From assembly GCF_055900595.2 (NCBI RefSeq), contig NZ_CM148325.1: a stretch of DNA of 64,000 nucleotides, one strand, 5' to 3'. This document shows positions 26,240-27,320 of the stretch, piece after piece. Under the pieces are notes generated by a model that saw only the letters and a list, made by a program, of their open reading frames with translations, was not told the DNA's origin and made no database searches. How positions within the stretch are numbered: the stretch's first letter is position 1; each line of letters starts with the position of its first letter. The position numbers and the translations under genes are program-made.

Positions 26240-27320
26240 CCTGCGTTATAATGTTCAGTGATTCATGCGGGTGTTCAACTTATATTCTAACAACCAAGTT
26301 TCCGTGATTTCCCGTACGTCATTCAGCATTCTGAACAGATAAAAATCGAGTATTTCTGTACGGTATGTCAGGTTAAAATGTTCAATGAAAGCATTCAGCG
26401 TCGGTTTACTTGTTTGGATAAACTCCAGTTTTACTACGTGTTTCTCTGCTCATTCAGCCAGTGCCAGAAAGAGAAATTCCGGGTAGTTATCTACGCGAAG
26501 TATGATCGGATAGCTACAGTTTGCTGCGATACTGTCGGGTACACTTACCACTCGTGGAACTGGCAGACGCCGATCGATTTCAATCGATAACGTCTCACGG
26601 TTTTAAAGCTATCAACGATATTGAACGTGCGAAAACGGCGAACACAGACCAGAGCATCATGCATAAAATCGACAGATCATCGTAGGTTCAGCGTTTCCGG
26701 TATGTTAGTGGCGAGGGATTACGCACCGGCAACCGCTGTTTGCCCTTACGGCGAAAATTCAGCTTCAGCAGACAGTAAATTCGGTGGATCCATTTGTGAT
26801 TCCACTAATACCCCTGCTGCCGTAAAATCTGGAAAAGTTTCGGAAAATCGTATCGAAGATAACGCTCTGCCACCGCCGACAAGGCGACAATAATGAGTTC
26901 GTTACGCGTGGTATCTGGAGGATAAAGATAAACCGTTCTGCTCAGGTTCAGACTCCGGCAGGCCTGACTGATACTGAGTCCGATCGTCGTTATCAGGTGA
27001 GTGACCTGCTCACGCTTAAAGACTGGTTTTAAAGCTTTTTTCGATAACGTCTTTCAGTGCCCAGCTCTCCAGCCTCACTCCGGCAAACATCTGTTTGAGA
27101 CGGTGGTTCCCGTCTTTAAGCTCCTTGATCTTTTTAATATCAGAAGCCTCCATGCTGCCGTACTTGGACATTCAGTTGTAGTGGGTGGCTTCAGAAGTAC
27201 CAGCCTCCCGGCAGATATCTTTTAACAGTTCGTCCGGATTCAACCGTTTTAATGGCGGCCATGAGCTGACACTCAGTAAAACGGGCTTTACGCATAACGA
27301 TTACCTTCATCGGTAGATTG
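26240..27320 (-). mobile_element. Degenerate IS3-family insertion sequence remnant (orfA plus frameshifted orfB)
   Basis: Minus-strand translation gives IS3-family OrfA (MRKARFTECQLMAAIKTVESGRTVKDICREAGTSEATHYNWMSKYG...) and OrfB C-terminal motifs (NAFIEHFNLTYRTEILDFYLF) interrupted by stops. Plus-strand ORFs here are antisense shadows. Confidence 0.6.

Follow-up and report, generated by a model that had tools for sequence, protein, structure and literature searches.

A fossil IS3-family insertion sequence between region 2 and kpsS of an Escherichia coli group 2 capsule locus

Does a decayed transposable element that lies where the serotype-specific genes of a capsule locus meet the conserved ones record an exchange of the serotype-specific cassette, or has it merely been carried along with it? 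The question is raised by a stretch of 64,000 nucleotides (contig NZ_CM148325.1, RefSeq assembly GCF_055900595.2; hereafter the window), which is a segment of the Escherichia coli chromosome with a capsule (kps) locus. An earlier note on this DNA described the interval 26240..27320 as a decayed IS3-family insertion sequence (IS), with a clear OrfA and a fragmented OrfB on the minus strand, and took it as a plausible footprint of the exchange of region 2. The interval sits in the gap between two converging transcription units, one formed by the final genes of region 2 and the other by kpsS, with which region 1 closes. The place given in the note, between the last region 2 gene (end at 25968) and kpsS (stop at 27541), is correct.

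The minus-strand translation displays recognisable remnants of OrfA and OrfB, split by stops and frameshifts, in which the motifs SVDFMHD, RVDN and IEHFN are still present. The frame-repaired translation matches the Pfam families HTH_Tnp_1 (E 2e-16), rve_3 (6e-16) and rve (2e-6), as well as the NCBIfam model NF033516 'IS3 family transposase' (165.5 bits, cut-off 160). End-to-end alignment with an intact 1207-bp IS of E. coli (L002:567-1773) revealed 85.9% nucleotide identity. RefSeq independently agrees; its pseudogene coding sequence spans window 26186-27295, is named 'IS3 family transposase' in each listed record, and carries the note 'frameshifted; internal stop' in the record inspected. 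The identification as a decayed IS3-family element is borne out by these observations. The OrfA motif presumably resembles that of the IS407-group elements.

The ends of the element were set by comparing family copies lying in different contexts, and it proved to be larger than the interval of the note, extending 69 bp and 54 bp beyond it to occupy 26171..27374 on the minus strand. As evident from its end-to-end alignment with the intact relative, it is a complete but inactivated IS3-family IS of 1204 bp with both terminal inverted repeats. Length and tips are those of the family (∼1.2-1.5 kb, 5'-TG...CA-3'), the right tip ...TTTACA being retained and the left tip reading TTTAAGTA as compared to TGTAAGTA in the relatives, a TG>TT change. 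The two-frame layout of IS3 elements is also preserved, with the orfA remnant (HTH_Tnp_1) at 27016..27295 (−), its ATG at 27295, and the orfB remnant (rve/rve_3 DDE domain) at 26186..27035 (−). The remnant of the programmed −1 frameshift run lies at 27036..27041 (−); intact relatives are annotated 'programmed frameshift' and have an A7 run, whereas the slippery signal of the window copy is itself damaged to A6. A frameshift-stimulating hairpin downstream of the run was predicted in the intact copy and not in the window copy, with both folds at z ∼0 against shuffled sequences. The Rfam model IS1222_FSE did not match the window IS and matched only a neighbouring fragment in L002.

The intact 1207-bp IS resides on a plasmid of ETEC1718 (NZ_CP122874.1, 18455-19661; transposase WP_087933729.1, 'programmed frameshift') and has no ISfinder name in RefSeq. 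The window copy resembles it in length class, in the terminal repeats (TGTAAGTA...TTTACA) and in the orfA/orfB layout with its frameshift run (A7 in the intact element). It differs by 4 premature stops, 8 indels, the altered left tip, a content of guanine plus cytosine (GC) that is 5 points lower, and 86 private substitutions. The GC content of the element is 44.9%, as compared to 20-27% in its flanks.

The lesions are spread over the whole element. OrfA is recognisable but not as clear as the earlier note had it, since it carries a +1 insertion at 27223 and a TGG>TGA change at 27174; OrfB is fragmented, as described. The slippery run (27036-27041) has lost one A, and orfB contains a TAG at 26807, a net −1 indel at 26700-26707, a TGA at 26679, a +2 indel at 26603-26604, a TGA at 26452 and single-base deletions at 26278, 26215 and 26204. 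A further single-base deletion is located at 26180 in the right terminal repeat. One of the 8 indels thus falls in the frameshift run, and the 4 premature stops together with 7 frame-disrupting indels mark this copy as a fossil member of the family, which cannot encode a transposase.

The substitution pattern was obtained by counting private substitutions in an alignment of the window copy with six other family members. There are 86 such substitutions at 1168 comparable sites in the window copy, distributed as 23/30/23 over codon positions 1, 2 and 3, and their direction is GC>AT in 53 cases and AT>GC in 19. The corresponding distribution in an intact relative is 15/2/46, a signature of purifying selection. 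Because the spread over codon positions is even, the window copy has evolved neutrally for a long time.

The IS is fixed in the locus as sampled. The 1541-bp junction is present at >=99% identity in 39 complete E. coli genomes (megablast), one of the carriers being an O15:H18 ST69 strain, and no empty site was found among 5,426 complete E. coli genomes, as a search with the joined flanks returned only these 39 IS-bearing genomes, each with two separate places. Both flanks of the IS are restricted to the same 39 genomes and the IS always lies between them. The gap from the last region 2 gene to kpsS measures 1572 bp, as in the window, in all five places that reach kpsS out of the six shown. These places come from a much larger assembly collection, in which 509 blocks list the last region 2 protein.

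The most divergent copy of the locus, from a dog isolate (L016), provides a measure of age. Its IS differs from that of the window by 7 substitutions and 0 indels, and all lesions are common to both. Since even this copy has every lesion, the inactivation is older than the common ancestor of all sampled locus copies. Comparison of the private decay (7.4%) with the diversity of the locus (0.6%) suggests that the inactivation is roughly ten times older than that ancestor, assuming a constant rate.

The position of the IS relative to the point at which different capsule loci cease to be homologous was located with a query made of the 3' part of kpsS and the spacer. It matched 1746 genomes, with more than 80% query coverage only in the 39 carriers. 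Among 58 other genomes, sampled at even spacing, homology ends at query position 694 or 695 (window 27607/27606) in 55; the remaining three lose it earlier and none later. The boundary between region 1 and region 2 is therefore sharp; it falls within kpsS, 22 codons upstream of the stop codon, and 232 bp separate it from the IS. The stretch 27375..27606 (−), which comprises a serotype-specific spacer (27375-27540) and the variable last 22 codons of kpsS (27541-27606), has a GC content of 27%, is found only in the 39 carrier genomes, and lies between the IS and the conserved portion of region 1. The DNA on both sides of the IS is serotype-specific and AT-rich, with 27% GC on the kpsS side and 20% on the other. 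Furthermore, the cassette, IS and spacer of L016 differ from those of the window by ∼0.5% (IS 0.6%), as compared to 2.1% for kpsS upstream of the boundary. Because the divergence of the IS matches that of the cassette and not that of kpsS, the IS would be expected to travel inside the exchanged unit, with crossovers falling in region 1. The 27606/27607 break falls on the same nucleotide in nearly all of a spread sample from 1,707 other kps-positive complete genomes, and the C-terminal tails of KpsS are serotype-specific, with kpsS ending 2 nt past the boundary in K5, 39 nt past it in K1 and 66 nt past it here.

The other end of the IS is directly abutted by a serotype-specific hairpin at 26129..26170, with a 10-bp stem (AAAGCACTGC/GCAGTGCTTT) and an inner stem, at the right IS end. 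Its predicted fold has a free energy of −19.7 kcal/mol (z = −3.8), and it is followed on the plus strand by TTTT, the last T of which is the first base of the IS. The hairpin is probably the terminator of region 2 and, as it may be read from either direction, could also stop read-through from kpsS. A simple terminator scan of 25800-27700 reported none, the long loop having hidden this hairpin.

An intact gene on the plus strand, which the earlier note had raised as the alternative to an IS, was not found; three open reading frames of 70-90 amino acids are present there, without a Pfam match. The plus strand does contain a full-length match to the Rfam family isrN (RF01396) at 26888..27030, which spans model positions 1-143 and scores 123.7 bits (gathering score 44). 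IsrN of Salmonella has been detected as a 143-nt RNA overlapping the transposase remnant STM2765, and its over-expression raises the mRNA level of that remnant (PMC2330248). The likeness of the window segment to IsrN of Salmonella Typhimurium thus consists of the whole 143-position model and of the setting in an IS3-family relic. The segment is located shortly after the frameshift run, on the strand opposite the beginning of orfB. All copies of this IS that were examined match the model on their antisense strand, and the matches found elsewhere (L002:911-1053, L004:911-1053 and L003:12316-12457) are always immediately downstream of that run.

With the same model, two further full-length IS copies, one intact and one with a single internal stop, score 156-158 bits on their antisense strand, and a further fossil in another K locus, considered below, scores 129 bits. 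Private substitutions number 8/141 in the isrN segment and 78/1027 in the rest of the IS. Because the other copies score higher and the rate of decay is the same, the segment is a part of the IS and not a separate gene; the match is a property of the IS family, which doesn't conflict with the IS reading, and the isrN-like segment is best read as nothing more than the reverse strand of the dead element. Three base pairs are broken in the window copy, two of them in the terminal hairpin and one in an inner stem, and 5 promoter-like sites were found as compared to 5.9 expected by chance. As compared to Salmonella IsrN, the window segment has disrupted hairpin pairing and no sign of selective conservation, its score is below that of intact IS copies, and nothing in its substitution pattern suggests that it is maintained.

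We regard it as very probable that the IS is a passive passenger of the locus, i.e. that a single insertion was followed by neutral death and by inert inheritance in the cassette. One transposition of an IS3-family lineage common in Enterobacterales would have placed it in the non-coding gap between the two convergent units, the end of region 2 and kpsS, where landing immediately after the terminal hairpin of region 2 would have been harmless. Neutral decay would then have destroyed its transposase, through 4 nonsense codons, 8 indels and private substitutions, biased towards AT, of at least 7%. Thereafter the dead IS would have persisted as an inert component of the cassette haplotype, which is probably KL52 or closely related to it, and would move between strains with region 2 via homologous recombination in the conserved kps flanks. 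In this order of events the cassette would already have been in an enterobacterial host at the time of insertion, and the element would have no present function.

Some observations weigh against the passenger account. The window copy has no 3-bp target duplication (flanks TTA and AAA), and one flank may not be original; a decayed IS of the same family is found after the last region 2 gene in an unrelated, atypical K locus (MS14384, L003:11967-13164; HCM-26C-1, L014), which may point to a target preference of the family or to a role that it has played repeatedly; and the remnant might have been co-opted, be it as a terminator or promoter or via the isrN-like RNA. The absent duplication and the second fossil, at the distal end of region 2, would also suit the proposal of the earlier note that the IS is the footprint of a gain or swap of region 2, brought about by recombination between IS copies, by an IS-mediated adjacent deletion or by the capture of cargo in a composite element. 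The same may be said of the published view that IS elements contribute to K-locus diversification, among them those that K4-like loci carry between kpsS and kfoC (Gladstone et al., Nat Microbiol 2026, PMC13171598). We nevertheless consider a footprint unlikely. The break in homology is universal and lies in kpsS, 232 bp away from the IS, with cassette-type DNA on both of its sides; the locus has one IS copy only, with no partner at the kpsM side; and when the junction was compared across serotypes, as the note had suggested, no IS was found between kpsS and region 2 in K5 (Nissle), K1 (BEN2908) or a third serotype (Rb-3). The two K-locus fossils are, moreover, independent insertions. The missing duplication could reflect a later IS-mediated rearrangement or simple decay; as only one of the six other family copies examined has a clean one (L009, GGG/GGG), it is weak evidence, and it doesn't argue against membership of the IS3 family, for which a 3-bp duplication is typical. 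The proposed link to cassette exchange is thus unsupported, and there is no evidence that the IS mediated it. A 9-nt flank shared by the window (AAAGCACTG) and L002 (AAAGTACTG) was judged to be due to chance, the L002 flank being another IS fragment and other copies having different flanks.

It is similarly improbable that the low-GC cassette came from a foreign donor with the IS in place, and possibly dead by then. The AT-rich, cassette-type DNA on both sides of the IS and the age of the lesions, all of which are older than the ancestor shared by the locus copies sampled, would fit such an arrival, as would the AT-biased substitutions; AT-biased decay is, however, expected for any bacterial pseudogene. 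The 45% GC of the IS is far from the 20-30% of its surroundings. Its plasmid relatives are all from Enterobacterales (Escherichia 1083, Klebsiella 212, Salmonella 119 and Yersinia 93, among others), and the window copy falls among E. coli copies in a neighbour-joining tree; for these reasons the cassette was most likely in an enterobacterial host already when the IS entered it. Least probable of all, and in our view scarcely credible, is that the remnant has been co-opted, giving rise to an Hfq-binding small RNA like IsrN or acting on kps expression as a promoter or terminator. What would speak for such a role is the full-length isrN match and the behaviour of the Salmonella RNA, and against it stand the higher scores of intact and other IS copies (129-158 bits), the undiminished rate of private substitutions, the broken pairs of both stems, the chance-level number of promoter-like sites and the three plus-strand reading frames without a Pfam match.

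The fossil of MS14384 and HCM-26C-1 resembles that of the window in belonging to the same IS family (80.8% identity), in its full length and in its neutral decay (17/17/7 private substitutions). It differs in its flanks, which are not homologous, in its orientation, which is reversed with respect to region 2, and in its place in a different sub-clade. A common origin of the two was ruled out, as they share 0 indels and only 4 derived substitutions, and by this comparison they are independent insertions. In the atypical locus kpsUCS is followed by kpsMT and then by region 2 at the outer end, with an acyltransferase fragment after the IS fossil; in HCM-26C-1 (L014:8967-11425) the fossil is further split by an intact IS3. 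L015 (TB06051), considered as a further K-locus copy, was rejected, being an IS-rich island unrelated to kps. A survey of K loci reported no IS in atypical loci (PMC13171598), probably because decayed copies escape ISEScan. That this IS family targets the operon-end hairpins of incoming cassettes and helped to stitch them to the kps genes, or that a fossil isrN-like RNA influences capsule expression, seems to us very unlikely.

The survey in question covers 18,185 kps-positive genomes, of whose unique K-locus sequences 28% have an IS, most commonly of the IS1 and IS3 families; K5 loci always have one, and an IS3 remnant has been described in K5 (PMC13171598). In Nissle K5 no IS adjoins kpsS, and the annotated relic is an IS481-family pseudogene further in. 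The element of the window is comparable to the IS elements and remnants of E. coli group 2/3 K loci in the survey in being an IS3-family relic fixed inside a K locus, and to those of K4-like loci in lying on the kpsS side of region 2; it differs from them in belonging to a different K locus, having no cargo gene and interrupting no capsule gene. Public records of 39 complete genomes already list it as an IS3-family pseudogene, and the occurrence of IS relics in E. coli K loci is likewise known. The capsule locus is probably KL52 or a close relative. The gene clusters DB_group_2 and DB_group_101 match the 3747-nt and 993-nt gene sizes of the window, and the part of the survey's table that was covered shows both in KL149, a locus that the tree of the survey groups with KL52, KL157 and KL159 (PMC13171598).

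The setting is that of a group 2 kps locus, in which the conserved kpsFEDUCS genes converge on a serotype-specific region 2 and a JUMPstart element lies upstream of kpsM, as seen in the RefSeq annotation of the colinear record. That record, FDAARGOS_448 (NZ_CP023960.1), is colinear with window 10000-42634 across the capsule locus, with 33 mismatches and 0 indels. The gsp operon, ending with yghD, is followed by the JUMPstart element (13996-14034, Rfam scan), the kpsM-like gene (14063-14839), two biosynthetic genes, the kpsT-like gene (19869-20549, in ∼30% GC DNA), four region 2 genes on the plus strand, the last of which is the one ending at 25968, and the kpsS side. The minus strand then carries kpsS (27541-28773), kpsC, kpsU, kpsD, kpsE and kpsF. 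The GC content is 30% in region 2 and 50.5% in region 1. The kpsM-like and kpsT-like genes are not adjacent as in a typical region 3, being separated by a 993-nt galactosyltransferase-related gene and a 3747-nt TagF-like gene (CDP-glycerol glycerophosphotransferase family), and each is only ∼74% identical to the kpsMT genes of another K locus. Another strain with the same K locus has an IS1 inside its 829-amino-acid acyltransferase gene (L018:1869-2565), which suggests that O-acylation-negative variants of the capsule occur.

Past kpsF, window 36296-37816 contains an IS110-family fragment (36296-36478), a frameshifted AbiEii/AbiGii toxin gene and its DUF6088 partner, and beyond these lies a CP4-like island with CbtA/YeeU, Ag43 and IS66 elements. 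An Rfam match named 'IS102' (250 bits, 50308-50513, minus strand) does not represent an insertion sequence; it lies shortly before the start of agn43 and corresponds to the intergenic RNA region known from the flu/agn43 leader.

On its own the element matters little. As a fossil it is a stable, lineage-independent marker of a common, probably K52, capsule locus. Its isrN-like segment indicates that isrN matches in E. coli annotation would represent the antisense strand of an IS3-family element and not an independent small-RNA gene. The neutral decay, at about ten times the diversity of the locus copies, further shows that the clones in which the cassette haplotype is now found are far younger than the haplotype itself.
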